Notes under the pieces: model-generated
Databases searched by the model: none
The model's input: the letters and a program-made list of their open reading frames with translations, nothing else
What the model was told of the DNA's origin: nothing
Source of the DNA: an uncultured Acidobacteriota bacterium
GTDB lineage: Bacteria; Acidobacteriota; Blastocatellia; RBC074
Direction: 5' to 3'
NCBI GenBank assembly: GCA_963796275.1
Contig: CAWCKY010000001.1
Location: forward strand, 1,024,001 to 1,088,000
DNA: 64,000 bases
In this document: in pieces, positions 6,053-19,677 of the stretch
Position numbering within the stretch: position 1 is the first letter of the stretch
How the letters are laid out: each line of letters starts with the position of its first letter
Position numbers and translations under genes: made by a program

Positions 6053-8964
6053 TCAGTTTATTTTTTCCATTAACGCAACCGGTAAATTTGAAAATACCTC
6101 GGATAACGGCAGGGAAATCTCTCCCTCCGATTTCTGCGCGCATACGCTTTTGCCGTTGAATCGATCTCGATAACATCCGGCAAGTTCCTTCGACAAGGCG
6201 ATCGCGGTATCTCCCCATACCTCGCTCGCAATCGGCAGACTGGAATTTTCCCCCAGTTTGGTGAAAAACCGGGAAGCGGCGACGATCACCACTTTACTGC
6301 CTGATATTCTCGCAAAAGCTATTGCGTGCCTTTCGCGGTCGCCGCTCACTTGAAGCGGTAGGTATGCGCCGAGATCGAATAGGTCGCGCTCTGTGCGGCG
6401 GAGGTTGAGAGCGCGCGCGATTATGAATAGCTTGATCCGGCCGTCTTCCAGATTTCTTAGCATATCCTCGATCAGTTCCGCTACGTCATTCGACTCCAAT
6501 GAATCGAGGAGAGACTGGCGGCGCGCGTAATCGACCGGGCGCCGGTTGTCCGGATCGACCATGCTGAAATCCCAGAGCTCCGTTCCCTGGTAGAAGTCGG
6601 GAATGCCGGGGGAGGTTATTTTCAGCAATGTCTGCGATAAGGAGTTGAACATCCCGGCCCGCGCGATCGCCGATTGGCTCTTCGTGAAATCATGGACGAA
6701 GGCCGACTCAGGAGTGAGTATCTCTCTAATGAAGTTGCGCACGAACCGCTCATACTCTTCGTTTTGATTGAGCCAGCTCGAGTGGATCTTCGCCTCCCTT
6801 ATCGCTTTGATCATGTATTCCTCGATTCGCACGACGAAAGATTGATCGGACTCTTCACCCTCAAACGGGGCAAACGGCCATACTCCGACGAGCGTCTGGT
6901 AGAGCAAATACTCCTCGCTAGCATCAGGAGCGAGCGACCCTTCGAATGGGGTTTTGCGTTCTGAATTGAGTTTTTGCCAGCGCCGCACGGCTCGGTACCA
7001 GTTCACCGGGTTTTCTGAGAGGACATTGATACGCGCCCGCGCATCCTCGCTCCGTTTAGTGTCGTGAGTCGATGTCGCAAGCAGCGTATGGGGCCAGCTT
7101 GCGAGTCGCTTTCGGTTATGTTCGTGGAATGTCTGGGTTGAGATGCCGAAAAGCGAGGGATCGCCGCCGACTTCGCAGAGGGAGGCGAGCGGATAGTAGC
7201 GGTAAAACGCCGTATCCTCGATTCCCTTGGCGGTGACGGGAGGGGTCAATTGCTGGAAACGCATAACGAAATCGTGCCGTTCTGCCCGCTGTTCTTCATT
7301 GATCCCCTGAGGCTCTTCGTGCAGAAGAACCGATGCGATGAATTCAAAAATCGATGAGCTTATCGCCGGGTTGCGTCGACGTGCGCTTCGCACGGCGCTC
7401 AGGATGTGGTGGCGGTCGTCATCCGCAACCTTTCCCTGCTTTGCGCGGATGTAGCTGCGATAGACGGGAAAAGAGGCAATCACCTCTCTGAGCGCATCCT
7501 CCAGGCTGTTGAGCGTGAAATCGCGTGAGTATCTGTGCTGTTCTGAAATCCGATCGAGTTTTCGCGCCAGCACGTGCAGCTCGCTCGACATCGCGGCGCG
7601 CAGGACCAGCTTTCTCCCTTCATACGACACATCGTCGAATCTATCCTGCCTTCCTGTTATCCGCTGCCAAATCTTAAGGAATGCGGTCTCATTCGATCGA
7701 TCGATGAAGACTCCATTCAGCAGATTCAGAAAATCGTAGCCGGTCGTTCCCTGCGTAGCCCAGTTTTCGCGCAGCTCTTCGTTGCGCCCCAGAATCTTTT
7801 CAACTATCACGAAGTGAGAGGGGATCTGATTGTTGATAATTGTCCATCAGTCGATTGCCCTCCACGCACCGCCCTCAGAGCGCCGCGCTGCAGCTCTTTG
7901 AGGTAAAGTTCGGGATCATAAAGCCCATCGATGTGGTCGACCCGCAATCCAGTAACCATGCCCTTTTTCACCATTCGCAGGATAAAATTATGAACGGCGG
8001 AGAAGACCTTTCGCTCCTCAACGCGGATCGCTGCCAGTTCGTTAATGTCGAAGAAGCGGCGAAAGTTTATCTCATCAGCAGCCACCCGCCAGTGCGATAA
8101 GCGGTAGGATTGCGCGCCGAGCAATTCCTCAAGCCGATTAAAACTGGCAGGGTCCCCCTTTACGCCATTGAACTCGCGGATGACCGTTGCGATCGCTCGC
8201 CGCATCTGGCTGTTTGAGGTGACGAGCGACGAAATTCGGCGTTTGACGATCTCCTTCTCGCGGCCGCGTTCCTTCACCTTCTCCGGATCGGTGTCGGTGC
8301 GGGGAGGCAGATGTTCAAGTGCCGTGATTATGCTTTCCAATTCGAGCCGGTGCGGGTGTGACTCTTTGAGGCTGGCGGAGATCATTTCGAGCGCCGGTTT
8401 GAGTATCAGTATCCAAGTGCGCGGTGCAATCGGCAGTTCAGTGTCATAGTATTTGGCAATGAAGGTGCCGCGCTGATATTGTATCTGAATCTCCTTGTTT
8501 TCGAGCACCCTCCCGTATTGGTCCCCTAACACCGGAAGCAGCACCTTATTGCTCATATCCTGCTTCGGCGGCTGCCAGTCGATGTCGAAAAAGCGTGAAT
8601 AGGTAGAACCGGGACCGTTCTCCAGTATGTCCATCCACCATACGTTGTTCGAGTCGGCAATGCACATGTGATTAGGAACAAGGTCCATCATCAATCCCAT
8701 CCCAAGTCCTTTGAGCTTTGCACTAAATTTAACAAGATTCTCATTCGTTCCGATTTCAGGATTGAGTTTCGTGTGGTCTGTCACATCATAACCATGCAGA
8801 CTGCCTGATCGGGCAGCCAATAGTGGAGAAGCATAACAGTCGCTAATCCCCAGCTTGTCTAGATAACCGCTGATCGATTCCGCATCTTTCAATGTGAAAT
8901 TACTATTAAACTGAAGCCTATACGTCGATGACGGTATCCGAATTGTTATGGAATTTTCAGGCAT
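6053..8964 (-). CDS. treY: Malto-oligosyltrehalose synthase, split by a frameshift near 7815-7830 (ORFs 7807-9006 and 6053-7810)
   Basis: [37 protein letters not shown] in ORF1; [47 protein letters not shown] in ORF2; probable start at 8964. Confidence 0.93.
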
Positions 8965-9022
8965 ATCTAAGCAATTTAAATTTCTTGTCGATCGTAACAA
9001 ATTCATTTATTCTTAATTGTTG

Positions 9023-9038: not shown

Positions 9039-9227
9039 ATCGAACTGATCTACCTAATCTACGTCCTTCCCGTGTAATGTGAAAAAACACTTGTAGCCTG
9101 TTAGTACACGACCGGTTGTATCGAACCTATTCATGATTCAGATATTTTAAGTTCTAATTTGTTATGTGGATTGACAAAATAGGCATAAATAGGGGGGTTG
9201 ACTGCGAAATGAGGGTTGGGGGTGCTC

Positions 9228-9243
9228 TGGCCTCTAACTTGCT
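9228..9243 (+). promoter_or_regulatory. sigma54 promoter for candidate sRNA 1
   Basis: TGGCCT-CTAAC-TTGCT, GG-N10-GC. Confidence 0.7.
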
Positions 9244-9253
9244 TATTTAATAC

Positions 9254-9414
9254 GTGAGCGTTATAGGTTCTTGCAACGCACAACGGCATGAATACTGAAC
9301 ATGCAGGGAGCAGTATAAAGGAGCCAGGTGGGGAGCTGGCTCTTTTCGTGCCGAATTCAAAGCTGTCCTGAGTAGAGTTCTTGAAAGGCTACTTTGCTCT
9401 GGGCAGCTTTTTTT
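9254..9414 (+). ncRNA. Candidate sigma54-dependent sRNA 1
   Basis: Starts 12 nt after the -12 box; 5' hairpin, three-way junction (9284-9353), terminator stem 9359-9410 plus T7; G-U pairs favour the plus strand; no credible ORF. Confidence 0.65.
9359..9414 (+). terminator. Rho-independent terminator
   Basis: AAAGCTGTCCTGAGTAGAGT / ACTTTGCTCTGGGCAGCTTT followed by TTTT. Confidence 0.8.
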
Positions 9415-9594
9415 GTTCGCAATCCATATCCAGTGTAGCGCCAATCAAACACAATCCATACATATTACCAGTACGAATTAGTTCACATTTTTTCATCCAT
9501 TTGCTACGAAAGCGGTCGCTTTACATCCATTCACAAAGCTAAGTAATCTAGACAGAAGTGTTTAGAGTTGATACCCGGGGATCCGTATTTTTAC

Positions 9595-9610
9595 TGGTAT
9601 GGGCCTTGCA
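9595..9610 (+). promoter_or_regulatory. sigma54 promoter for the Clp-like ATPase
   Basis: TGGTAT-GGGCC-TTGCA, GG-N10-GC, about 30 nt before the start codon. Confidence 0.7.
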
Positions 9611-9638
9611 GATTCATTAGATATCTCCCGGAATAAGG

Positions 9639-10796
9639 ATGTCACATATGAAACAGCAATCAGAGATCATGAAGGCAGCAGCTGCTGCCGTGGGTTCAAT
9701 GCAGAATTGGATTCCACTCAACGCCGAAGAGAGGTGCGATGAGGCAGGGGTATTCGAAGAGGGGATATCTTCAAGGATCGTTGCACAGGATGAAGCTATC
9801 CGTGCTATGTCGCAGCTCTATCAACTTTATTTGGCTGATTTGAACATGCCGAACAAACCGATCGGGACGCTCCTCTTCCTGGGTCCTACCGGTTCCGGCA
9901 AAACACGTGTCGTCGAGGCGGCCTCAGAGGTGTTGTTCGACGATCCATATGCGATGGTCAAAATTGACTGTGCCGAGTTTCAACACTCGCACGAAATATC
10001 GAAACTGATCGGCTCGCCGCCCGGATATTTGGGGCATCGTGAAACACATCCGATGTTATCGCAGGAGAACATAGACCGTTTTCAGACGCCAACAAATAAG
10101 CTTACCTTAATTTTATTCGATGAGATAGAGAAGGCGTCCGATGCGCTATGGCAACTCTTGCTTGGCATTCTCGACAAAGCGACGCTCACCCTGGGCGACA
10201 ACAGAAGGGTCGATTTCTCGAACTGCATCATCGTCATGACGTCCAATCTGGGCGCCCGTGAGATGAGCGTTCTGACCGAAGGTCAAATGGGCTTTGCGCC
10301 AACCGAAGCAATTTCCTCGGACCTCGATGCGAGGCTGGTAAAAATCGGAATTGAGGCGGCGCGGCGTAAATTTTCGCCCGAATTCATGAATCGCCTCGAT
10401 AAGATAGTCGTTTTTCAAACCCTAACCCGCGCCGCGATGGAGCGGATTTTGGACCTTGAATTGGATCTTCTGCAACGGAGGATTCTATCGACCGGACGCA
10501 GCGCTTTTATCCTTAAATGTAGCGATGAGGCAAAGGAATTTTTGCTTAAGGAAGGCTTCGATCGCCGCTACGGGGCAAGACCGCTCAAGCGTGCCATTGA
10601 ACGACATATTCTCGTTCCCGTCTCGAATATGATCTCTACCGGACAGCTTTCAACCGGTGACATTATGCTTGTCGATGTCAACGATGTTCGGAAAGGGCTC
10701 TGTTTCGGGAAGGCTTTCCCGTCATTAAGCCTGGATCATTGCGATCAGAGCAGCGGATTTTTCCCCGCACCTCAATTGCAAAGATTGGCTACATAA
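9639..10796 (+). CDS. Stand-alone ClpA/B/C-type second AAA+ module (AAA_2 + D2-small)
   Basis: GPTGSGKT, LIGSPPGYLG, FDEIEKA, MTSNLG, PEFMNRLD, YGARPLKR; no N-domain or D1. Confidence 0.9.
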   Translation: MSHMKQQSEIMKAAAAAVGSMQNWIPLNAEERCDEAGVFEEGISSRIVAQDEAIRAMSQLYQLYLADLNMPNKPIGTLLFLGPTGSGKTRVVEAASEVLFDDPYAMVKIDCAEFQHSHEISKLIGSPPGYLGHRETHPMLSQENIDRFQTPTNKLTLILFDEIEKASDALWQLLLGILDKATLTLGDNRRVDFSNCIIVMTSNLGAREMSVLTEGQMGFAPTEAISSDLDARLVKIGIEAARRKFSPEFMNRLDKIVVFQTLTRAAMERILDLELDLLQRRILSTGRSAFILKCSDEAKEFLLKEGFDRRYGARPLKRAIERHILVPVSNMISTGQLSTGDIMLVDVNDVRKGLCFGKAFPSLSLDHCDQSSGFFPAPQLQRLAT

Positions 10797-10938
10797 CGTA
10801 CGGCAACTGTCGTGCGCACACGGCTCGGCTAAAAGGCCGGTTGATTAGGAAGATGTATAAAGCGAATTAACGTGACGGAGCATTCTTTCGCTTCGCATCC
10901 ACTCCTGCTTATCCGGCCTTGTCTTCCACGGACGATGG

Positions 10939-11088
10939 TTATAATCCCAGGGTCCGTCGCTTAGTTATCAGCTGAAGTGCCAAAACAACCACTGCAATTA
11001 CCAGCAGCAGATGGATGTTACTTCCCACTCCGCCCAAAAAACCAAGCAGCCAAAGAATTAAAATAATCGCAAGGATCGTCCATAACAT
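10939..11088 (-). CDS. lmo0937-family (DUF5670-like) small membrane protein, 49 aa, absent from the ORF track
   Basis: Translated by hand: MLWTILAIILILWLLGFLGGVGSNIHLLLVIAVVVLALQLITKRRTLGL; AAGAAGGA RBS. Confidence 0.88.
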   Translation of the reverse strand: MLWTILAIILILWLLGFLGGVGSNIHLLLVIAVVVLALQLITKRRTLGL

Positions 11089-11117
11089 AATATCCTTCTT
11101 TGCCTGCTTTAATAAAA

Positions 11118-11133
11118 GGCAACTGATATGCCT
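11118..11133 (-). promoter_or_regulatory. sigma54 promoter for the lmo0937-like gene
   Basis: AGGCAT-ATCAG-TTGCC on the minus strand, GG-N10-GC, 30 nt from the ATG. Confidence 0.6.
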
Positions 11134-11282
11134 GTCTCAAACTATCATTACTGTAGCAGCCCGATGCAGCGCGTATCGTAGAAATACAAGTGTCTGTAGT
11201 CAATACATTCAGTTGCATTATTATTATATAAGATTGCGTGGTAATATTGGGTGAAGGGCTGTACTAAAACCGAAACGCGCTA

Positions 11283-11298
11283 TGGTCTGAGCTTTGCA
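11283..11298 (+). promoter_or_regulatory. sigma54 promoter for the DUF883/holin/DUF3618 operon
   Basis: TGGTCT-GAGCT-TTGCA, GG-N10-GC. Confidence 0.6.
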
Positions 11299-11413
11299 AG
11301 AAAGGCTAGGGAGACTCATCGCTAAGATTGAAAAAGACCTGGGGGAGAGCGAGTTACACAAAAATGATTTGAGCTACCTCTGGGGATTAAAGGCATTGAG
11401 TTACTAGGAGGAG

Positions 11414-11806
11414 GTGAACATGGATAGGATGGATAGGACGGAATTCAAGTCTAACCGGGAGTACCAGGATAATTTGCATCAGGATGAAGAAGTGTTGAGG
11501 GAGCAGGGTTATATGGCTGGAGGGGGTATGACTTTTGATCGGGTGAAGGCGGCGGTGGCAGATTTTTTATATGAGGCAGCTGAAGTGATCCATCATAAAA
11601 GTTTAGGGACCGGCAGTTCCGAAATATCGAATTTCGGTGACCGTGCCGCTAACTGGTTGGAGCATTCAGCCGGCTATGTGAGGGAGATGGAGCCGCAGCA
11701 GTTAAAGGCGGATTTCGAAGATAAAGTCCGCCGCCATCCGGGGCGGAGCCTCATAATCGCCGGGGTGGTAGGGCTGGTTATAGGCAGCGTGATTCGCAGG
11801 AGGTAA
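11414..11806 (+). CDS. ElaB/YqjD (DUF883)-like C-tail-anchored protein
   Basis: C-terminal VRRHPGRSLIIAGVVGLVIG-RRR; strong AGGAGGAGG RBS. Confidence 0.75.
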   Translation: MNMDRMDRTEFKSNREYQDNLHQDEEVLREQGYMAGGGMTFDRVKAAVADFLYEAAEVIHHKSLGTGSSEISNFGDRAANWLEHSAGYVREMEPQQLKADFEDKVRRHPGRSLIIAGVVGLVIGSVIRRR

Positions 11807-11810
11807 TTAT

Positions 11811-12230
11811 ATGTTCGAGCGGCACGGACAGGAGAGGATTTTATATTCATCATTGCAGCGCGAATCGATTGGAGATCTGCTCAGCAACCTGGCGGCTCAA
11901 TCGACCACTCTCGTGCGCGACGAGATCGCGTTGGTCGGGCGCGAATATTATGAAAAGGGAAAGCATGTTCGGCCGGCGTTGATCGTGCTGGCCGTTGGCG
12001 CCTTTCTCGCTATGCTCGCATCGGTGACCCTCTGCGCGGCGATTGTCCTTTTCATAAGTCAATATATTGACATCTGGATTTCTGCTGCGATCACAGGAAT
12101 CAGTTTAGGGATTATCGCCCTGTTGATGATTTTGGTCGGCGTCAGCCGAATGAAGCAGACAAGCCTCAGGCCTGAGCAAACTTTAAAGTCGCTGGAGGAG
12201 AACAAAGAATGGCTGAAAGAAATTACCTAA
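11811..12230 (+). CDS. Phage-holin-like (Phage_holin_3_6 type) membrane protein
   Basis: SIGDLL...LVRDEIAL, two TM helices, PEQTLKSLEENKEWLK tail. Confidence 0.8.
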   Translation: MFERHGQERILYSSLQRESIGDLLSNLAAQSTTLVRDEIALVGREYYEKGKHVRPALIVLAVGAFLAMLASVTLCAAIVLFISQYIDIWISAAITGISLGIIALLMILVGVSRMKQTSLRPEQTLKSLEENKEWLKEIT

Positions 12231-12670
12231 CTGAGGGCCGCCCAGCTTCTGCTTCGGCTCATGCTCCGGAACGTAGTGCTGAAGAGATTCGGAAGGACAT
12301 CGCATCGACGCGCGAGTCGATCACCGAAACGGTGGATCAGTTGAGTGATCGTTTCGGGCAGACTTTAGATTGGCGCACGTACGTATCGGATCATCCGCTG
12401 GCTGCTTTGGGGGTGGCGGCAGGGATCGGATTTTTGGCAGCGGGATTATTCAGGCATCGCGCTTCGGCGAAAGATCGCTTTACGGATGCTTTGGCCGATG
12501 CAGTCGAAGATATGTCGGAACGATTTCGTAATCACCTCGATGGGCTGGGTTTGAAAAGACCCGGCCTGGCGATGACGATGAGAGCGGCGGCAGCCGGTGC
12601 GATTGCCAGAGCTGCAACCGCCTATTTGAGTAGCCGTGTCGTTGGTGGCGACAACTACAAGAACTCATAA
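12209..12670 (+). CDS. DUF3618-domain protein
   Basis: RSAEEIRKDIASTRESITETVDQL; HPLAALGVAAGIGFL; overlaps the upstream gene. Confidence 0.8.
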   Translation: MAERNYLTEGRPASASAHAPERSAEEIRKDIASTRESITETVDQLSDRFGQTLDWRTYVSDHPLAALGVAAGIGFLAAGLFRHRASAKDRFTDALADAVEDMSERFRNHLDGLGLKRPGLAMTMRAAAAGAIARAATAYLSSRVVGGDNYKNS

Positions 12671-12690
12671 AACGGAATGAAGGAGGAAGT

Positions 12691-13155
12691 ATGGCAGACA
12701 CACCAAGAAGCGAACAGAATCAAGCGAAACAGGCCACACCGGGAGGCCAGACTGCCGAACAGATAGCCAGCGCGGCGCGGCAGGCTCGCGGATATATGTC
12801 AGACACAGAGCGCCAAACGGGGCAAACAGGGCAAACGGGGCAGGCTGGGCAAGCGGGACAGGCCGCTCAGAAGGCGAAAGAGAGAGTATCCGATATGGCC
12901 GGCCAGGCACGGGAGACTATAAATCATGCCTATTCTCGCGCTAGTCGTGGGATGAACGAGACCTGGGACCAGGCGATGGTTTACAGCAAAGACCATCCGG
13001 CAACGGCTACCCTGGTGGCTTTCGGAGCGGGGCTCGGGATCGGCCTCTGCATCGCAGGGACTTTCGGCGGCCTACAGTCCCGCAGCCGCGCACGCCGTAT
13101 AGTACCTCCGATAATGAACGCGCTTTCGGATATTGCCCGGGAATTTTTCCGTTGA
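12691..13155 (+). CDS. DUF883/YtxH-like stress protein with GQT/GQA repeats
   Basis: GAGGAAG RBS; HPATATLVAFGAGLGIG anchor; nonamer-coded repeat near 12813-12866. Confidence 0.7.
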   Translation: MADTPRSEQNQAKQATPGGQTAEQIASAARQARGYMSDTERQTGQTGQTGQAGQAGQAAQKAKERVSDMAGQARETINHAYSRASRGMNETWDQAMVYSKDHPATATLVAFGAGLGIGLCIAGTFGGLQSRSRARRIVPPIMNALSDIAREFFR

Positions 13156-13190
13156 TAACGGTTCAGGAACGAATAAATGATACCGAAACC

Positions 13191-13258
13191 GTCCCAGTTG
13201 CCCCAGTCGCCCCCATTGTCCTTGTTGTCCCAGTCACCCCGGTCGCCTCGGTCGCCCC
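13191..13258. repeat. Degenerate nonamer tandem repeat (GYCCCAGTY-like), intergenic
   Basis: gtcccagtt gccccagtc gcccccatt gtccttgtt gtcccagtc accccggtc gcctcggtc. Confidence 0.75.
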
Positions 13259-13284
13259 TTTCCGAGGTTGAAGGAGAAGAATCG

Positions 13285-14934
13285 ATGCCCAAAGAGAAGC
13301 GGACCATTCTCCTCGTCAGTAAAAATAATACGGATCCTCAGCCCTGGCGGGAGTATCTGGAGACCGACGACGCAATCGACTGGTCATTCATCGAGGAAGA
13401 GTCGGCCGCGAAAGCTGCGACGAGCTGTCTGCTGATCAGACCCGATTGTCTTCTGGTCAGCGGAACCCCATCGGGGATCAATGATGTGCTGGCGGCTCTG
13501 CAGGAATCGATAGACCAGATTCCGGTGATCGTGATCACCGATTCGGGCGGGGATGAATCTTTGGGACCAATTGGAAGAGAAGTGGGAGAGTGTCTGAATC
13601 GTGAGGCTGTCTCGTCCGGCGTTCTCCGCCGGACTGTCAGCCGAGCGATAGAGATGACCAGGATGCAGTGTCTGGTTGAACAACAGGCGCGGCAGATCGA
13701 TGAACTCAATCTGCGGTTGGAGACCGAACGGGGCCAGATGATGGAGCGCGAAAGGCGGGCGCGCGATCTGGCCGAAGCGGTCAACCGGGATAAGGATGAA
13801 TTCATTGCGGTCGTCTCACACGAATTGCGAGCCCCCCTCAATGCCATACTCGGTTGGGCGCGCATTCTCAAAATCGGGAAATACAACGCAAAAACATTCG
13901 AGCATGCGGTCGATGTGATCGAACGCAGCGCCCGTACCCAGCAGCGATTGATCGAAGACCTGCTCGACACCGCGCGGGTCATCAGGGGGAAGCTCCGATT
14001 GGAGACCAAACCCGTCGATCTCGCCCGGGTCATCGAGGCTTCCGCCGATTCCGTTCACCCGGCCGTCGAGGCTAAGGGCATAGATTTAAAATTGAAACTG
14101 AAGGGTAAGAACAATGTCATTACGGGTGATGCGGACCGGCTGCAGCAGGTAGTCTGGAATCTGTTATCGAATGCCGTCAAATTCACGCCCGAGGGGGGGC
14201 AGGTAGAGGCTCAACTCGAACGGGCGGACCCTTATTTACAAATTATCGTGAGAGATTCGGGCAAAGGCATCAGCCGCGATTTTCTGCCCTATATCTTCGA
14301 TCGATTTCAGCAGGCCGATCTGGCCAGCAGGCGCCGCCACAGCGGGTTGGGGCTCGGCCTGGCGCTCGTACGGCATCTCGTCGAGCTGCACGGCGGAACA
14401 GTCGAGGCCGATAGCGCGGGTGAAGGGCAAGGATCTACCTTTATTGTGAGGCTCCCGCTTCCGGCTATTCGGCAGCGAGTCGATGAAAAGAAGCAAAGTG
14501 CCCGCGATAAATCGGTTGCCATCAGCTCCTACTCGCTCGACGGCATACGCACGCTGGTGGTGGATGATGATCCGGATGCGCGCGATCTCGTGGCCACCTT
14601 GCTGCGGCAATATGGCGCCCATGTCACTACAGCGGCTTCCGCCTCGGAGGCGCTCGTATGCATAACATCCAGCGATTCATCCAATCGAGCCGAGATTCTG
14701 GTCTCTGACATCGGGATGCCGGAAGAAGATGGATACTCCTTGATCGAGTCGATACGGCGACTCGCCCCCGAAGATGGAGGTTCCATTCCTGCCATCGCGC
14801 TCACCGCGTATGGGCGCGCGAGCGATCGCATCAGGGCGCTTTCAGCGGGTTTCCAAACGCATATGCCGAAACCCGTCGAACCCGCAGAGCTTGTCATGGT
14901 GATATACAGTTTGACGGGCCGCGCCAGTTATTGA
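13285..14934 (+). CDS. Hybrid sensor histidine kinase (degenerate REC - HisKA - HATPase - REC)
   Basis: SHELRAPL, NLLSNAVKF, DSGKG, GLGLGL, VSDIGMP; GAAGGAG RBS supports a start at 13285 rather than 13177. Confidence 0.93.
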   Translation: MPKEKRTILLVSKNNTDPQPWREYLETDDAIDWSFIEEESAAKAATSCLLIRPDCLLVSGTPSGINDVLAALQESIDQIPVIVITDSGGDESLGPIGREVGECLNREAVSSGVLRRTVSRAIEMTRMQCLVEQQARQIDELNLRLETERGQMMERERRARDLAEAVNRDKDEFIAVVSHELRAPLNAILGWARILKIGKYNAKTFEHAVDVIERSARTQQRLIEDLLDTARVIRGKLRLETKPVDLARVIEASADSVHPAVEAKGIDLKLKLKGKNNVITGDADRLQQVVWNLLSNAVKFTPEGGQVEAQLERADPYLQIIVRDSGKGISRDFLPYIFDRFQQADLASRRRHSGLGLGLALVRHLVELHGGTVEADSAGEGQGSTFIVRLPLPAIRQRVDEKKQSARDKSVAISSYSLDGIRTLVVDDDPDARDLVATLLRQYGAHVTTAASASEALVCITSSDSSNRAEILVSDIGMPEEDGYSLIESIRRLAPEDGGSIPAIALTAYGRASDRIRALSAGFQTHMPKPVEPAELVMVIYSLTGRASY

Positions 14935-15033
14935 TTGCTTTAGGCGTATTGAATGTTCAGAAACAAATTTCCGGAATCCGCAATCTATGCGCATCCGTCA
15001 ATAAACAGTCCGCAATCAAGAAAGAGGGAAGTC

Positions 15034-16635
15034 ATGAACAGAGCAAAGGTGCTTGTTATCGACGATGATCCTGAAATGCTCGATCTGACCCAGTATGAGC
15101 TGCAGACCCGTGGTTATGAGGTGATTACGGCGAAGAATGGCGAGGAAGGGTTGAAAATTATTGGCGAACACGGCGTCGACGTCGCGCTCACGGACCTCCA
15201 GCTTCCTGATATTCACGGAATTGAACTGGTCGGGATGTTGAAGGAGATTTCGCCGCGCACGGAAATAATCATGGTGACCGGCTACAGCTCGCTCAACGAT
15301 GCTATCGGCGCGATCAAGGCCGGCGCATTTTATTTCATCGAAAAGCCGGTCGAATTCGAGGAACTGTCTCTCCTGCTCGAGAAGGCTATCGAACGCGGCA
15401 GCCAGGCCGAGGAGATCAAGAACCTGCTGGGACGATTGAGCGAGCGAACCTCGTATTACAATCTGATCGGCAGCAGCAAGGCCATGCAGGATATCTATGA
15501 GATTATCGAAGGCGTCGCCGAATCGGACGCCAACATAATGATCTTCGGCGAATCGGGGACCGGCAAGGAGTTGATCGCAAATGCTATCCATTATAAGAGT
15601 CTGCGCGCCAAGAAACCGTTCGTTAAGATCAACTGCTCGGCGCTGCCGAAAGAGCTGATCGAGTCGGAGCTATTCGGTCATACCAAAGGCGCATTCACCG
15701 GCGCGGCGACCGAGAAGACCGGATTGATCGGGCAGGCGAAGGGGGGCAGCCTCTTGCTTGATGAGATCGGTGAGATGCCCGTTGAATTGCAGCCCAAGCT
15801 TCTGCGCGTACTGCAAGAGCGCGTCTACTATCGGTTAGGGAGTGAAAAAGCGCTCGAAGCCGACTTCCGGTTGATCTCGTCGACCAATCGCGATCCGCTG
15901 GTGGCGATCCGCGATGGGCATTTGCGTGAAGACCTTTACTACCGCATCAACACCATCGAAATTCACGTACCGCCTCTGCGCGACCGCGCGGAAGATATCC
16001 AGCATCTGGCCGAATATTTCCTGAAAATATATGCTGAAAAGTACCATCGCCAGGTGCACTCGATATCACAGCACGTCTATGAACGAATGTTCGAGTATTC
16101 TTGGCCCGGCAACGTGCGCGAGCTGCAGAATGTCATCGAGCGTGCGGTCCTACTCAGCAAGGGAGATATGATCGAAGAGAGCATCCTGCCCACGGCTATC
16201 TCGGTACAGCCGGAGGCAGCCAGTGTCCCGGTGCCGGAATCATCACTGCCTGCGACCGGCAGCAAATCTGAAGCAGGGGTGTCAAATGCACAGGATTTGA
16301 CGCTGGAGCAGATGGCCTGGTTGATAGTTAACCGAATCCCGGATTCGAAGGACGGGAGGCATCGAACCGACACGATCAAACAGTTTGAAGGCGCCATCGT
16401 CAACGCCGCTCTCGAGCGCACGAGAGGCAACAAGCAGGCGGCTGCCAACCTGCTCGGCCTCTACCGCCCCCGCCTTTACACGCTGCTGAGAAAACACAAC
16501 CTGGGCAAGACGATCCGTGAAGTCGACCGGTCTATCACAGATGCCGAGCTGGAAGAACAAGAAATGGCTGAGATGGATTCTCACGCTATGGTAGATAATG
16601 GGCTTACTCACACGATGCGTTCGGCGGGAGACTGA
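15034..16635 (+). CDS. NtrC-family sigma54-dependent response regulator (REC-AAA-HTH)
   Basis: TDLQLP, GESGTGKE, ESELFGH, GAFTGA, WPGNVRELQN, Fis-type HTH GNKQAAANLLG; acidic C-terminal extension. Confidence 0.96.
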   Translation: MNRAKVLVIDDDPEMLDLTQYELQTRGYEVITAKNGEEGLKIIGEHGVDVALTDLQLPDIHGIELVGMLKEISPRTEIIMVTGYSSLNDAIGAIKAGAFYFIEKPVEFEELSLLLEKAIERGSQAEEIKNLLGRLSERTSYYNLIGSSKAMQDIYEIIEGVAESDANIMIFGESGTGKELIANAIHYKSLRAKKPFVKINCSALPKELIESELFGHTKGAFTGAATEKTGLIGQAKGGSLLLDEIGEMPVELQPKLLRVLQERVYYRLGSEKALEADFRLISSTNRDPLVAIRDGHLREDLYYRINTIEIHVPPLRDRAEDIQHLAEYFLKIYAEKYHRQVHSISQHVYERMFEYSWPGNVRELQNVIERAVLLSKGDMIEESILPTAISVQPEAASVPVPESSLPATGSKSEAGVSNAQDLTLEQMAWLIVNRIPDSKDGRHRTDTIKQFEGAIVNAALERTRGNKQAAANLLGLYRPRLYTLLRKHNLGKTIREVDRSITDAELEEQEMAEMDSHAMVDNGLTHTMRSAGD

Positions 16636-16667
16636 ACTAACTTGAAGAGGGAAGGGAATATGAGTGT

Positions 16668-16889
16668 ATGAACAAGGAAAGAAAAGATGACCCGAAGCCT
16701 AAACCTCCACCCGCCCCCCAACTGCCCAACCTCCCATGGAGCCCTGACGATCCTTTCCAACTGGATCCGGAGCGAAAAGAGCCAGTTACTACAAGTCTGC
16801 CAGAAACAGAAAAAGAAAATGATGGGGCAACGCCGCCGGCGCGACCAAAACGCGAGAGACGAGAAAATGAAGAAAGTAATGAGCAATAA
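16668..16889 (+). CDS. Small Pro/Glu-rich hypothetical protein
   Basis: Follows the regulator on the same strand with purine-rich upstream sequence; low complexity. Confidence 0.45.
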   Translation: MNKERKDDPKPKPPPAPQLPNLPWSPDDPFQLDPERKEPVTTSLPETEKENDGATPPARPKRERRENEESNEQ

Positions 16890-17052
16890 CTATAATAGAA
16901 CACACACAGGTATTTTTTTAGTACATAGACATGACTTTCTTCAATCCATTTTAGTTATTATGTACACATAAAATTCCTATTTCTCGCATCGAAATATCTC
17001 CAAGCATACAGAATATAACAAGTTGAGTATTTTAGAAAAATCGCAATGTTAA

Positions 17053-17068
17053 TGGCATTGAGGTTGCT
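17053..17068 (+). promoter_or_regulatory. sigma54 promoter for candidate sRNA 2
   Basis: TGGCAT-TGAGG-TTGCT, near-consensus, with AT-rich upstream DNA. Confidence 0.8.
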
Positions 17069-17078
17069 AGGCAGTTGA

Positions 17079-17219
17079 TGACCATTTTAACGAATGGTCA
17101 GCTCAAGTACAGGCGAGGGACTTTCGGGGGAGTGAGTTCCTCGCCGTCATGAGTTGGGATGGCTGCTTGCGAATAGCTGTCACACGAGGGAAAGCTATTC
17201 TCAAGCAGCCATTTCTTTT
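17079..17219 (+). ncRNA. Candidate sigma54-dependent sRNA 2 (three stem-loops)
   Basis: TGACCATT/AATGGTCA at the predicted +1; long stem 17100-17155; terminator stem 17160-17211 plus TTTCTTTT; G-U pairs on the plus strand. Confidence 0.7.
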
Positions 17220-17357
17220 GACATCGATACCGAACAGCGCCGGAGGTTAGTCAAACTTATGCTTGGCAGCCATAAGTTACCTTCTGGCGCTCGTCCTAGC
17301 TATTCTGGCGATACCAAGGCGTATTTCCTCTACCTTGTCGTGGTATCGATGTATGAA

Positions 17358-17876
17358 TTATCGAACTGTCGTATACTCGCGCGTATAGACCGGCCGGAGG
17401 TCTCTCTCCTCAACAACCACCTCAGTCAGCGATAGTGACCGAACACCTATTTGGAGTCCCTCATTGAGTTGTTGAATCAAGATGACCCGTCCATTATTGA
17501 ACCGGAGCGCGTCTCGGTAGACGTACGGCTTATCAGTTATCTGAGTGAAGGTAGCTTCCTCTCTTTCGTTTAGGCCGTGCTCTTTCTGAAGACGCGCCGG
17601 GATGCCCTGAACATCCAGCCGTGCACCCGGCGGAATACAGACCGCGGGCAGCGCTCTCTCGATCTGTCCGTTGGCTGATTCCATCCCACGATCCATCCAC
17701 GTTTTGAATCTCATCCATAAACTGGATTCCGCTGTGACCTGATATTGTTTCTTTATCTTATCGAGGTCAGTCGGCGATGCCAGCCCTTTCGAACCAGAGA
17801 GGAATCTGTGGACGAAAAGCGTTTCGCCTTCAACGGCCAGACGGTTTTTAAAGCTATGCAATGAATAGTCGCACAT
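17358..17876 (-). CDS. Conserved hypothetical protein of the MCDYSL...AVC(I/L)xPG type
   Basis: AGGAGG RBS; MCDYSLH, AVCIPPGARL and YRDALRFNNG motifs. Confidence 0.8.
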   Translation of the reverse strand: MCDYSLHSFKNRLAVEGETLFVHRFLSGSKGLASPTDLDKIKKQYQVTAESSLWMRFKTWMDRGMESANGQIERALPAVCIPPGARLDVQGIPARLQKEHGLNEREEATFTQITDKPYVYRDALRFNNGRVILIQQLNEGLQIGVRSLSLTEVVVEERDLRPVYTREYTTVR

Positions 17877-18241
17877 ATTCTACCTCCTAAATATCCTGGG
17901 CGATGCCCTGCTTGAATGACGATTACTGAATCTACTCTCTTTACTGCTTCTTCGTTGAGTATTAAGTCTTCAACAGTTTATCCGGTCGTCTTCTATTATT
18001 CCGGGTTCATACCAGGCGATTCGAATGGGAGGATTTCAACATAGCCTTACCCGGTAATCATTTCGTTTTGGAGGATTCTTTTTCTTAGCTGAAACCGCTT
18101 GCTGTAAGTTTACCTCATTTCTATGGGTTTGAGAACCGAATAGAGGCATACAGCTAATTTTCGTGGAATATCATTGATATGAGATTGCTTTTCTATAGTT
18201 TAAAGAGGGACCGAGCATCACAATGTCGCGCACCTTCGCAA

Positions 18242-18333
18242 CGCGGCGGCCCGAGACGACTGCTTTCTCCTGAATTTCTGTGAAAGTTGTATAACAGAAA
18301 TTCAGGAGAAAGCGGTCGTCTCGGGCCGCCGCG
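18242..18333. repeat. 40-bp near-perfect palindrome with a 12-nt loop
   Basis: 18242-18281 versus 18294-18333, 39/40 complementary. Confidence 0.92.
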
Positions 18334-18412
18334 CTCGAGCGTCTCACTATTCATCTATTCATTTCATAAGGGTAATAAGAAGCAATTTGATTTTTCCTCT
18401 GCTCCCCACCAC

Positions 18413-19603
18413 TCACCGTCTCGTAGCACTGTTGCGAGGCGAGCTGGATCGAACAGTTATTTCCGTTCCGCTCGGGAGATCGAGGTTATCGCGGCCTTGG
18501 ATCAGAACAGTCCCGGCGCCTGCGCCGGCCCCAACCGCGGCTCCGATGGCAGCGCCCGATCCGCCACTGGCTACTGCGCCGATTATCGCGCCGAGGGCCG
18601 CTCCGATGCCTGATCGTGTGATCGTGCGGGTCGATTGACTGTCGTCATCCTTAATAGTGCCTTCACTCTCTATCTTGACCTCTTTCCCGTCAGGCGTGCG
18701 GATGTTTTCGAGTGTGCCTCTGAAATCGTATGTGCTGCCGTCGCGCATCCGAATGCGGTCGAAATTGAGCGTCAGCTCTGCGCTCCCGGTTACACGTCCC
18801 GAACTCTCGATGTTGGAAACGATTCCTTCAATCACGGCACCTCTGTATTGGGAAGGCGATCGCACCTCCATGCTGAAACGATTCGTGGAACTGTCTTCCT
18901 TCGTGGACAGGTTTGTGGTCAGAACGGCTGTAAGCCTGGTGTTATTGGGCACGATAAATCGCCCTTGAACCGGTCGATTGGGGCCGTTGTTATCACGCGG
19001 ACCCGTATAGAGATTCAATTGCGCGATGTCGGACGTCTTTTCATATAGGCTCGTGACGACTATCGGCTGGGAGAAGCGTTCCGCATAAATGCTGCGCGTG
19101 ATCCGCATCCGCTGGCCTCTCTCGGTCGGGTCGAATGTAACGTTGTAATCGCTGCCCTGTGAGCCGGTCCTGTTGACGATCAACTGGTCGCCATTGAGTG
19201 ATGCTTTGATGCGCACCGTCCGCCCACGTTCCGTTGTCTCCGTACGAGTCCGCCCGTCCGCGTCGAAGGTGGTTTTCGGCGCACGTGTGGAGGCCATCGT
19301 GAAGCGGCGTCCGCTCTGCTCAATTGCGATCACATCCGGAGCATCAAGTCTTCGCGTAACGCGCTCGCGCGCCCGTTGTTGCTCGCCCGACGGCAATCCG
19401 CGGATTGCCCGCTCAACTATATCGTCCGCGTTGTCGCTGCGTGAAACATCAAGCCGCCATGTCCCCGTCAATTGGCCGGGATTCCGTTGAGAACGCCGTT
19501 GATTTGCTTGCTGTGCGCTCACGGAAGTATCAGCCTGCACAAGCAGCATTAACAGAAGCGCAAGCATCATGAAATAGTTGATGAATTTTATTTTTACTGA
19601 CAT
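18413..19603 (-). CDS. Secreted protein with TrbI/VirB10-like C-terminal domain and glycine zipper
   Basis: Signal peptide; VPNNTRLTAVLTTNLST...GAVIEG...LNFDRI; GAALGAIIGAVASGGSGAAIGAAVG. Confidence 0.75.
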   Translation of the reverse strand: MSVKIKFINYFMMLALLLMLLVQADTSVSAQQANQRRSQRNPGQLTGTWRLDVSRSDNADDIVERAIRGLPSGEQQRARERVTRRLDAPDVIAIEQSGRRFTMASTRAPKTTFDADGRTRTETTERGRTVRIKASLNGDQLIVNRTGSQGSDYNVTFDPTERGQRMRITRSIYAERFSQPIVVTSLYEKTSDIAQLNLYTGPRDNNGPNRPVQGRFIVPNNTRLTAVLTTNLSTKEDSSTNRFSMEVRSPSQYRGAVIEGIVSNIESSGRVTGSAELTLNFDRIRMRDGSTYDFRGTLENIRTPDGKEVKIESEGTIKDDDSQSTRTITRSGIGAALGAIIGAVASGGSGAAIGAAVGAGAGAGTVLIQGRDNLDLPSGTEITVRSSSPRNSATRR

Positions 19604-19661
19604 TTTCTGGCCCCTCTCTGTTTTGAAATAACCAATCTACAAGCTACATCTTCTAATTGTC

Positions 19662-19677
19662 AGCAAGAATAGTGCCA
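19662..19677 (-). promoter_or_regulatory. sigma54 promoter for 18413-19603
   Basis: TGGCAC-TATTC-TTGCT, a perfect consensus. Confidence 0.85.

Follow-up and report, generated by a model that had tools for sequence, protein, structure and literature searches.

A predicted sigma-54-dependent small RNA gene divergent to treY in an uncultured Acidobacteriota bacterium, and the RNA family around it

The DNA considered here, referred to throughout as the window, is a stretch of 64,000 nucleotides (nt) from contig CAWCKY010000001.1 of an uncultured Acidobacteriota bacterium of the Blastocatellia (assembly GCA_963796275.1), the genome of which measures 9.46 Mb with a G+C content of 53%. Attention was focused on an intergenic region near 9228-9414, flanked by treY on one side and by a gene for a ClpB-like ATPase on the other, where an earlier reading of the letters alone, here called the original prediction, had placed an independent small RNA (sRNA) of about 160 nt behind a sigma-54 promoter. 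The features of this locus, in window coordinates, are the following.

9006-6053, minus strand: treY (malto-oligosyltrehalose synthase), divergent to the sRNA
9038-9023, minus strand: sigma-54-like box of treY, CGGCGTGAGGATTGCA
9092-9108, no strand assigned: dyad TGTAGCCTGTTAGTACA, a putative enhancer (upstream activating sequence) to which a sigma-54 activator would bind
9228-9243, plus strand: sigma-54 (-24/-12) box TGGCCTCTAACTTGCT, with GG at 9229-30 and GC at 9241-42 in canonical spacing
9254-9414, plus strand: predicted sRNA transcript of 'subfamily A', about 161 nt, both ends predicted
9258-9279, plus strand: 5' hairpin P1, from covariation, its loop with a semi-conserved GUUnnUG motif taken from the alignment
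9284-9353, plus strand: three-way junction (closing stem 9284-9291/9346-9353, P2a 9292-9316, P2b 9318-9345)
9303-9310, plus strand: P2a loop motif GCAGGGAG, unpaired in the minimum-energy fold
9329-9335, plus strand: P2b loop motif UGGGGAG, the best conserved unpaired block of the RNA
9362-9414, plus strand: intrinsic terminator, an interrupted 20-pair hairpin (8+9+3; core 9362-9407) followed by U7 (9408-9414)
9595-9610, plus strand: sigma-54 box of the ATPase gene, TGGTATGGGCCTTGCA
9639 or, more likely, 9648 to 10796, plus strand: gene for an AAA ATPase of the single-ring, ClpB-D2-like type; sigma-54 box of its own at 9595

Sequence comparison argues strongly that the plus-strand segment 9254-9414 is a sigma-54 sRNA gene in its own right, as had been proposed; we consider this very probable. 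The promoter box was indeed found to read TGGCCT-N5-TTGCT with the right GG-N10-GC spacing, from which a transcription start is predicted near 9254. A box is present in all 17 subfamily-A orthologues, mostly in the form TGGCGCG-N4-TTGCA, where a call required at least 8 of the 12 positions of the sigma-54 consensus (TGGCAC-N5-TTGCW) together with GG-N10-GC; the orthologue boxes score 9-11/12, and random 110-nt windows of the genome contain a box of at least 8/12 in 4.9% of cases and of at least 9/12 in 1.2%. A simple sigma-70 scan returned no sigma-70-like promoter on the plus strand upstream of the sRNA, and the host genome encodes rpoN (Sigma54_DBD match, 198 bits).

The dyad was first seen as an inverted repeat when the spacer upstream of the RNA was aligned from five genomes of the group coded g5. 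Its position is between the promoters of treY and the sRNA, with 119 nt separating it from the box of the latter and its centre at about -154 from the predicted start, which falls within the roughly 80-200 nt before a promoter that was taken as the range of an enhancer. Dyads that occur in pairs, separated by two helical turns and some 150 nt ahead of the -24/-12 box, are the kind of site used by NtrC-type activators. The pattern TGTA-N8-11-TACA has a single match in the 64-kb window (0.83 expected), and this match is the one between the treY box and the RNA box. Counting was restricted to A-type loci with 400 nt of upstream sequence (n = 16; L015 has only 40 nt), and 14 of them carry a TGTA-N9/10-TACA dyad 135-215 nt upstream of the RNA, eight loci having a second dyad about 21 nt further upstream; genome-wide, the pattern has 94 matches over 9.46 Mb, which corresponds to a background of 0.004 per 400 nt. 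Nine further dyads in the genome are near sigma-54-like boxes, and inspection of the three best revealed nothing related.

The predicted transcript folds into a compact structure on the strand that reads away from treY. The free energy of 9254-9416 was -64.8 kcal/mol on the plus strand (z -4.23; 0 of 200 shuffles as good) and -41.9 kcal/mol on the minus strand (z -2.0); this weaker minus-strand fold, together with a pair table in which U-G/G-U pairs occur in the 5' hairpin, the junction stem and the terminator, confirms that the G-U pairs of three stems favour the plus strand. The architecture outlined in the original prediction, i.e., a 5' hairpin from about 9254, a three-way junction at 9284-9353 with AGGGAG and UGGGGAG loops, and a 20-bp terminator stem followed by T7, was fully recovered at the positions listed above. 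The junction, closed by CGGCAUGA(A)/(U)UCGUGCCG, reaches -31.4 kcal/mol by itself (z -4.75), and its inner loops are AACAUGCAGGGAG (9298-9310) and GUGGGGAG (9328-9335), within which GCAGGG (9303-9308) is identical in 15-17 and each position of UGGGGAG in 16-17 of the 17 orthologues. The terminator core is likewise stable (-25.2 kcal/mol, z -4.1); a simple terminator scanner left it unflagged because the stem is interrupted and its top is beyond the loop limit of the scanner. P1 is not stable alone by energy (-5 kcal/mol, z -0.17), and rests on covariation. A G-quadruplex was also considered and set aside, as the window copy has too few G-tracts.

Covariation was evaluated on the 17 subfamily-A sequences in a model-guided alignment, which is fitted to the structure and thereby favours pairing. 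Standard pairs occupied 86.8% of the cells, as opposed to 32-45% when the 3' partners were slid by one to three columns, and compensatory changes on both sides were found in 42 of the 50 pairs, with 0 of 500 shuffles reaching any of five measures. Pairs covary in 7 of 8 cases in helix 1, i.e., P1 (89% of cells paired), in 8/9, 3/5 and 5/6 cases in helices 2, 3 and 4 (83.7%, 63.1% and 97.1% paired), and in 19 of 22 cases in the terminator helices 5 and 6; P2a, which varies in length, is for that reason the least well supported (63% paired). An independent MAFFT alignment analyzed with RNAalifold recovered P2b and the terminator, with covariation in 20 of 26 pairs. By these comparative measures all six predicted helices are supported. 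Stop-free stretches of 54-77 codons do cover the region, mostly on the minus strand, although the frames differ among orthologues, and a 26-codon plus-strand frame of the window stops after two codons in the congener G001; since no stop-free frame is conserved, the region is better read as an RNA gene than as a coding one. The locus thus shows a predicted promoter and terminator of its own, a covarying structure and no conserved frame, which together characterize the gene of a trans-acting bacterial sRNA.

By BLAST, the RNA was matched only in two congeners, G002 (87% identity) and G001 (72%), and in the three-way alignment conservation extends from the sigma-54 box to the T-tract, the flanks being unalignable. 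A covariance model built on these three congeneric sequences (R1) found full-length matches in further genera, and a second model built on 13 sequences (R2) gave hits at E <= 0.01 in 11 of the 17 genera of the host's own family (31 of 87 genomes). At E <= 0.001, R2 found none in 112 genomes of nine other Blastocatellia families, among which drafts and diverged lineages could hide copies. Many genomes hold two to four hits, which fall into at least five subfamilies, A to E, with a common plan and mainly different 5' parts; a UGGGG(G)A motif is present in the hairpin loops of all the other subfamilies. When nine opposite-strand terminator echoes or second overlapping hits were subtracted from 63 matches, 54 were left, and 46 of these have a sigma-54 box (>=8/12) just upstream, the eight without one being L122, L123, L126, L128, L130, L133, L142 and L146. 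Four of the latter (L123, L126, L128 and L130) are shorter elements with a GGGGGA terminator loop, located directly after a gene, and may represent either relatives that arose from 3' ends or just terminators of similar appearance. Members of subfamily E (L144, L147, L155; about 430-600) expose in the loop of the 5' hairpin a CCCCC run whose complement is found in the G-rich loops of the other subfamilies, such that RNA-RNA pairing between family members is conceivable. One of these loci, L155, and the g3 locus L021 come from an unpublished genome, G004, on which alone no conclusion rests.

A search of the window against Rfam 15, a check that the original prediction had named, gave no match above the gathering threshold to any known family, riboswitches, Qrr, Pxr, CsrB/Rsm and CrcZ included, the best sub-threshold score being 19.7 bits against a threshold of 40. 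The same search on 14 loci with relatives returned an unrelated cobalamin riboswitch and otherwise sub-threshold hairpin noise; that riboswitch (92 bits; L131, 1971-2186) is about 300 nt from an A-like member in genome G063, which is probably a coincidence. As far as sequence comparison can tell, the RNA family is new and so far confined to one Blastocatellia family of the Acidobacteriota, the kind of RNA being one already known.

The conserved neighbour of the RNA is treY, on the opposite strand. This divergent arrangement is seen in the window, in all seven g5 loci examined, in the g3 locus and in two of three g6 genomes (G021 and G053, and not G007), while the contigs of G002 and G001 end too soon to show treY. 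A sigma-54-like box (CGGCGCG-N4-TTGCA, >=9/12) precedes treY in nine of the ten loci examined. In g5 and g6, the surroundings of the RNA (10 kb to either side) contain neither the ATPase nor the histidine kinase and the activator that the window encodes further along.

The explanation that we regard as best, with a probability of roughly 0.6, is that of an independent sigma-54 sRNA that is switched on together with treY by an activator and acts in trans through its G-rich loops. An NtrC-type activator bound at the dyad would cause sigma-54 polymerase to fire in both directions, producing the sRNA and the treY mRNA, which would place the sRNA in a response to stress or in one concerned with storage carbohydrates. 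Released at its terminator, it would act in trans through the two invariant exposed loops, GCAGGGAG and UGGGGAG. We prefer, though weakly, a reading in which these loops would base-pair with mRNAs at C/U-rich sites and Hfq, attached to the U-tail of the terminator, would assist; the subfamily-specific loop of the 5' hairpin may provide an added or a separate choice of target. Hfq is encoded in the host genome; ProQ was searched for there and not found. Base-pairing as the mode of action is a tentative choice, to which we give somewhat less than even odds.

Several results weigh against this explanation, in its promoter part as well as in its mode of action. The box of the window copy itself matches the consensus at only 8 of 12 positions, and the pattern TGGYN7TTGCW occurs six times in the window where 2.0 are expected, a number that 4 of 100 shuffles reach; for this reason the promoter motif alone is weakly significant, and it is its conservation in orthologues that makes it convincing. 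Five of the six matches fall within one 10-kb stretch. The dyad is missing in two of the 16 loci (L029 and L121), and its spacing is 9 in the window, as opposed to both 9 and 10 in other genera. The remaining sigma-54 boxes of the surrounding gene cluster, including that of a second RNA at 17079, have no dyad, for which reason the kinase/activator pair of the window may not regulate the sRNA. Regarding pairing, complements of the loops were not clearly enriched near gene starts as given by rough calls of open reading frames (CTCCCCAA, 12/193; TCCCCCAA, 23/204), permuted words did as well in 25/60 and 4/60 cases, respectively, and the 35 instances showed no pattern of position or gene. Duplexes of the sRNA with the treY leader, computed with RNAduplex, were no better than those of shuffles in six of six loci. 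It is also to be noted that identical loop motifs repeated across all paralogues fit the titration of a protein at least as well as pairing.

This last point leads to the most serious competing explanation, in which the same sigma-54 sRNA would be a protein sponge: its two or three hairpin loops with UGGGG(G)A would mimic the Shine-Dalgarno-like sites of a translational repressor and titrate it, in the manner of CsrB/RsmZ with CsrA or of CrcZ with Hfq/Crc. Different signals, each received by a paralogue through an activator of its own, would in this way converge on a single protein. We consider this possible but unlikely, at about half the weight of the trans-acting sRNA set out above. The G-rich loop motif is the only element common to all subfamilies, with about two loop-exposed copies per RNA (46 members), and the loops are invariant while the stems covary. 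The dyad, moreover, is specific to subfamily A, being found upstream of 0/13 B, 1/11 C, 2/4 D and 0/3 E members, which implies that the paralogues differ in their input and not in their loops. Eight RRM-domain proteins, in addition to Hfq, are encoded as possible partners, and a sigma-54-driven sponge has a precedent in CrcZ, as described in PMC5113210. On the other hand, the window copy has just two motifs, few for a sponge; the copy in the terminator loop is lost in this genus; the counts of G-runs exceed those of shuffles modestly (2.9 vs 1.8); and no candidate protein gene is linked to any copy, the RRM genes included. The known reader of GGA loops, CsrA, was not found in the host genome (94.7% complete) in a search with PF02599, and a CsrA sponge was therefore rejected. 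Its distribution is patchy and does not track the RNA family: CsrA was found in 21 of the 87 family genomes and is frequent in g15 and g16, and searches of g5, g12 and g14 genomes returned none. The RNA, by comparison, is present in 8 of 8 g5 and 3 of 3 g14 genomes, with CsrA in 0 of 8 and 0 of 3. The window RNA has three GGA triplets, two of which are in apical loops, and its relatives have two to five G-rich motifs. A more specific version, in which the family would be a CsrA-independent counterpart of Csr/Rsm, i.e., at least five sigma-54 sRNAs under different enhancer-binding proteins with the same UGGGG(G)A octaloops titrating one translational regulator (for instance an RRM protein), is doubtful, and we rate it below the general sponge.

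Two further explanations, in which there would be no independent sRNA, both appear very improbable. In one, the element would act in cis on the ClpB-like ATPase gene (9639/9648), as a 5' leader or attenuator that is read through in certain circumstances. The RNA is indeed on the same strand, 225-234 nt upstream of the ATPase gene, and this adjacency is kept in the congener G002; however, the RNA ends in a strong terminator with U7, and the sigma-54 motif that had been noticed in front of the ATPase at 9595 is real and has an equivalent in G002 (TGGCATTTCGATTGCT, 59 nt before the start codon). Among 80 ATPase loci from relatives, only one has the RNA upstream and 79 do not, so that the pairing of the two is limited to this genus; in other genera, different genes follow the RNA, and what stays is treY on the other strand. 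The original prediction had thought a leader unlikely, and these results agree. The other explanation is that there is no functional RNA, but a repeated or mobile intergenic element, a structure at the DNA level or a small protein gene. It can draw on the several copies per genome and on the stop-free stretches mentioned above, but the copies are diverged subfamilies (A vs C, 56% identity) that are syntenic across genera, the G-U pairs and fold energies favour one strand, and the open frames differ between orthologues, the 26-codon frame being broken in G001.

Among known systems, the Qrr sRNAs of Vibrio comprise several sigma-54 paralogues with intrinsic terminators, driven by the NtrC-family activator LuxO, and act by Hfq-assisted pairing via a shared stretch. 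The present family resembles them in its paralogues (at least five), in its boxes (46 of the 54 family matches) and in the presence of Hfq; it is nevertheless not homologous, its enhancers appear to be different among paralogues, and its shared element is a short loop motif repeated in each RNA rather than one long seed. CsrB, RsmY and RsmZ are terminated sRNAs that titrate CsrA through GGA motifs in hairpin loops, with a link to storage carbohydrates. Here, too, GGA-containing loops, a terminated sRNA and a link to a storage-carbohydrate gene are found, but CsrA is absent from the host and from most RNA-bearing genomes, the motifs number two to four and read UGGGG(G)A rather than A(N)GGA, the promoter is of the sigma-54 type, and Rfam gave no match. 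CrcZ and CrcY of Pseudomonas are about twice as long as the window RNA. According to PMC5113210, they are driven by sigma-54 with the activator CbrB, a short motif recurs in them, and an RNA-binding protein is titrated; that motif is the A-rich AAnAAnAA, of which the window RNA and its sibling have none. Lastly, Pxr of Myxococcus xanthus is described in PMC5684412 as an sRNA with stem-loops, a predicted sigma-54 promoter and an upstream enhancer-binding region, adjoining a two-component NtrC-like regulator. Exactly this placement is shared, in this genus only, by the sibling RNA (17079), which follows an NtrC-family gene at 417 nt; the window RNA, in contrast, adjoins treY, and the nearest activator gene is 5.5 kb away and absent within +/-10 kb in other genera. 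There is also no sequence or model match to Pxr, the window RNA has a three-way junction and G-rich loops, and the phylum is a different one. By analogy, then, Pxr, Qrr and CrcZ are the closest in logic, and the predicted RNA belongs to none of them.

Acidobacteria are among the most abundant soil bacteria, and trehalose synthesis is a classic pathway of protection against desiccation and osmotic stress; to our knowledge, the RNA regulators of the phylum are almost uncharted. The full-text literature searched yielded no description of sigma-54 sRNAs in Acidobacteria, and a table in a 2022 review gives four annotated sRNAs for the phylum (PMC9029176). The locus offers a complete, comparatively supported module of putative enhancer dyad, sigma-54 box, covarying RNA and terminator, linked to trehalose synthesis, and a multi-copy family with one common loop motif may serve as an entry point to stress regulation in organisms that are hard to grow. 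It also raises the question of what reads the UGGGGA loops where CsrA is missing. If the CsrA-independent counterpart were true, it would integrate many stress inputs in Acidobacteria, the trehalose/desiccation response included.

The remaining features of the window that touch this subject are listed below.

17053-17219, plus strand: paralogous sRNA of 'subfamily C' (box 17053-17068, RNA 17079-17219)
downstream of the sigma-54 box at 11283: four small genes, one holin-X-like and one DUF3618/DUF883
13177-14934: hybrid histidine kinase gene
14953-16635: gene of an NtrC-family sigma-54 activator (response regulator), from Pfam
box at 19677-19662, minus strand: glycine-zipper protein gene, also on the minus strand

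The RNA at 17079, of which the 9254 RNA had been called a functional sibling, turned out to be a distant paralogue. With filters off, 17054-17221 matches R2 at 33.3 bits (E 1.7e-7); the two RNAs are 56% identical and share the plan, the 17079 RNA folding into a 5' hairpin, a junction stem with a UCGGGGGAGU loop (GGGGGAG) and a terminator. It sits, with its box, 417 nt after the stop codon of the NtrC-family activator gene (14953-16635), and its orthologues form subfamily C. The kinship thus held, and a common activator probably does not, since the 17079 RNA lacks the A-type dyad and the two are probably switched on by different activators. The genome-wide scan that had also been suggested, here for a sigma-54 box with G-rich motifs and a T-run, picked up the two RNAs along with three copies of subfamily B, by which the genome holds at least five family members.

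The three B copies (C1:737462, C6:1783081 and C7:896137 of G000; L171-L173) are nearly identical and about 175 nt long, with a box TGGTACGGTC-N-TTGCA, a highly conserved 5' single strand ACAAGCAAUGCUUCAGCAGUU and UUGGGGGA loops; their neighbours are mutually unrelated genes, with no RNA-binding protein among them. At C4:701113 of the same genome (L174), a sigma-54 box TGGCATCAGGTTTGCA is followed by a structured stretch of 126 nt and a terminator, upstream of a region for an extracytoplasmic function (ECF)-type sigma factor, and this may be a further, unrelated sigma-54 sRNA.

In the immediate neighbourhood of the RNA, treY consists of two overlapping minus-strand frames, 7807-9006 and 6053-7810, that match the N- and C-terminal parts of TreY models, with a shift of a single base between them close to a CCCC run (about 7820); both parts are present, adjacent and on one strand in G021, G020, G053 and G006. 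The split is a frameshift, a sequencing error or a pseudogene. For the ATPase, the second ATG (9648, MKQQSEIM...), 9 nt after AAGGA, is probably the start in preference to 9639, and transcription beginning near 9621 would leave it a leader of just some 27 nt. Pairing of the sRNA with this leader, judged by eye, amounted to just five pairs (CUCCC with GGGAG), and was set aside.

From 9228 to 19677, the window carries sigma-54 boxes at 9228, 9595, 11283, 17053 and 19677-19662 (minus), together with the CGGC-type box at 9038-9023 (minus). They surround the hybrid histidine kinase and the NtrC-family activator, and the genes with them are stress-like (treY, the ClpB-like ATPase, holin-X-like, DUF883 and glycine-zipper), such that the region looks like a sigma-54 stress island; the entire island is syntenic in G002. 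A common enhancer was sought among its six sigma-54 boxes, which share short k-mers only, and these are not significant. The gene at 11414 has G-rich motifs in its leader; these were considered as protein sites and rejected, being paired in the fold and not conserved in G002. A search of the window for an RNA 3' of the glycine-zipper gene, as in L155, found a long inverted-repeat terminator only. This perfect inverted repeat, at 18250-18330, is located between the convergent genes 17358-17876 and 18413-19603, has weak model matches on both strands, and is probably a two-way terminator.

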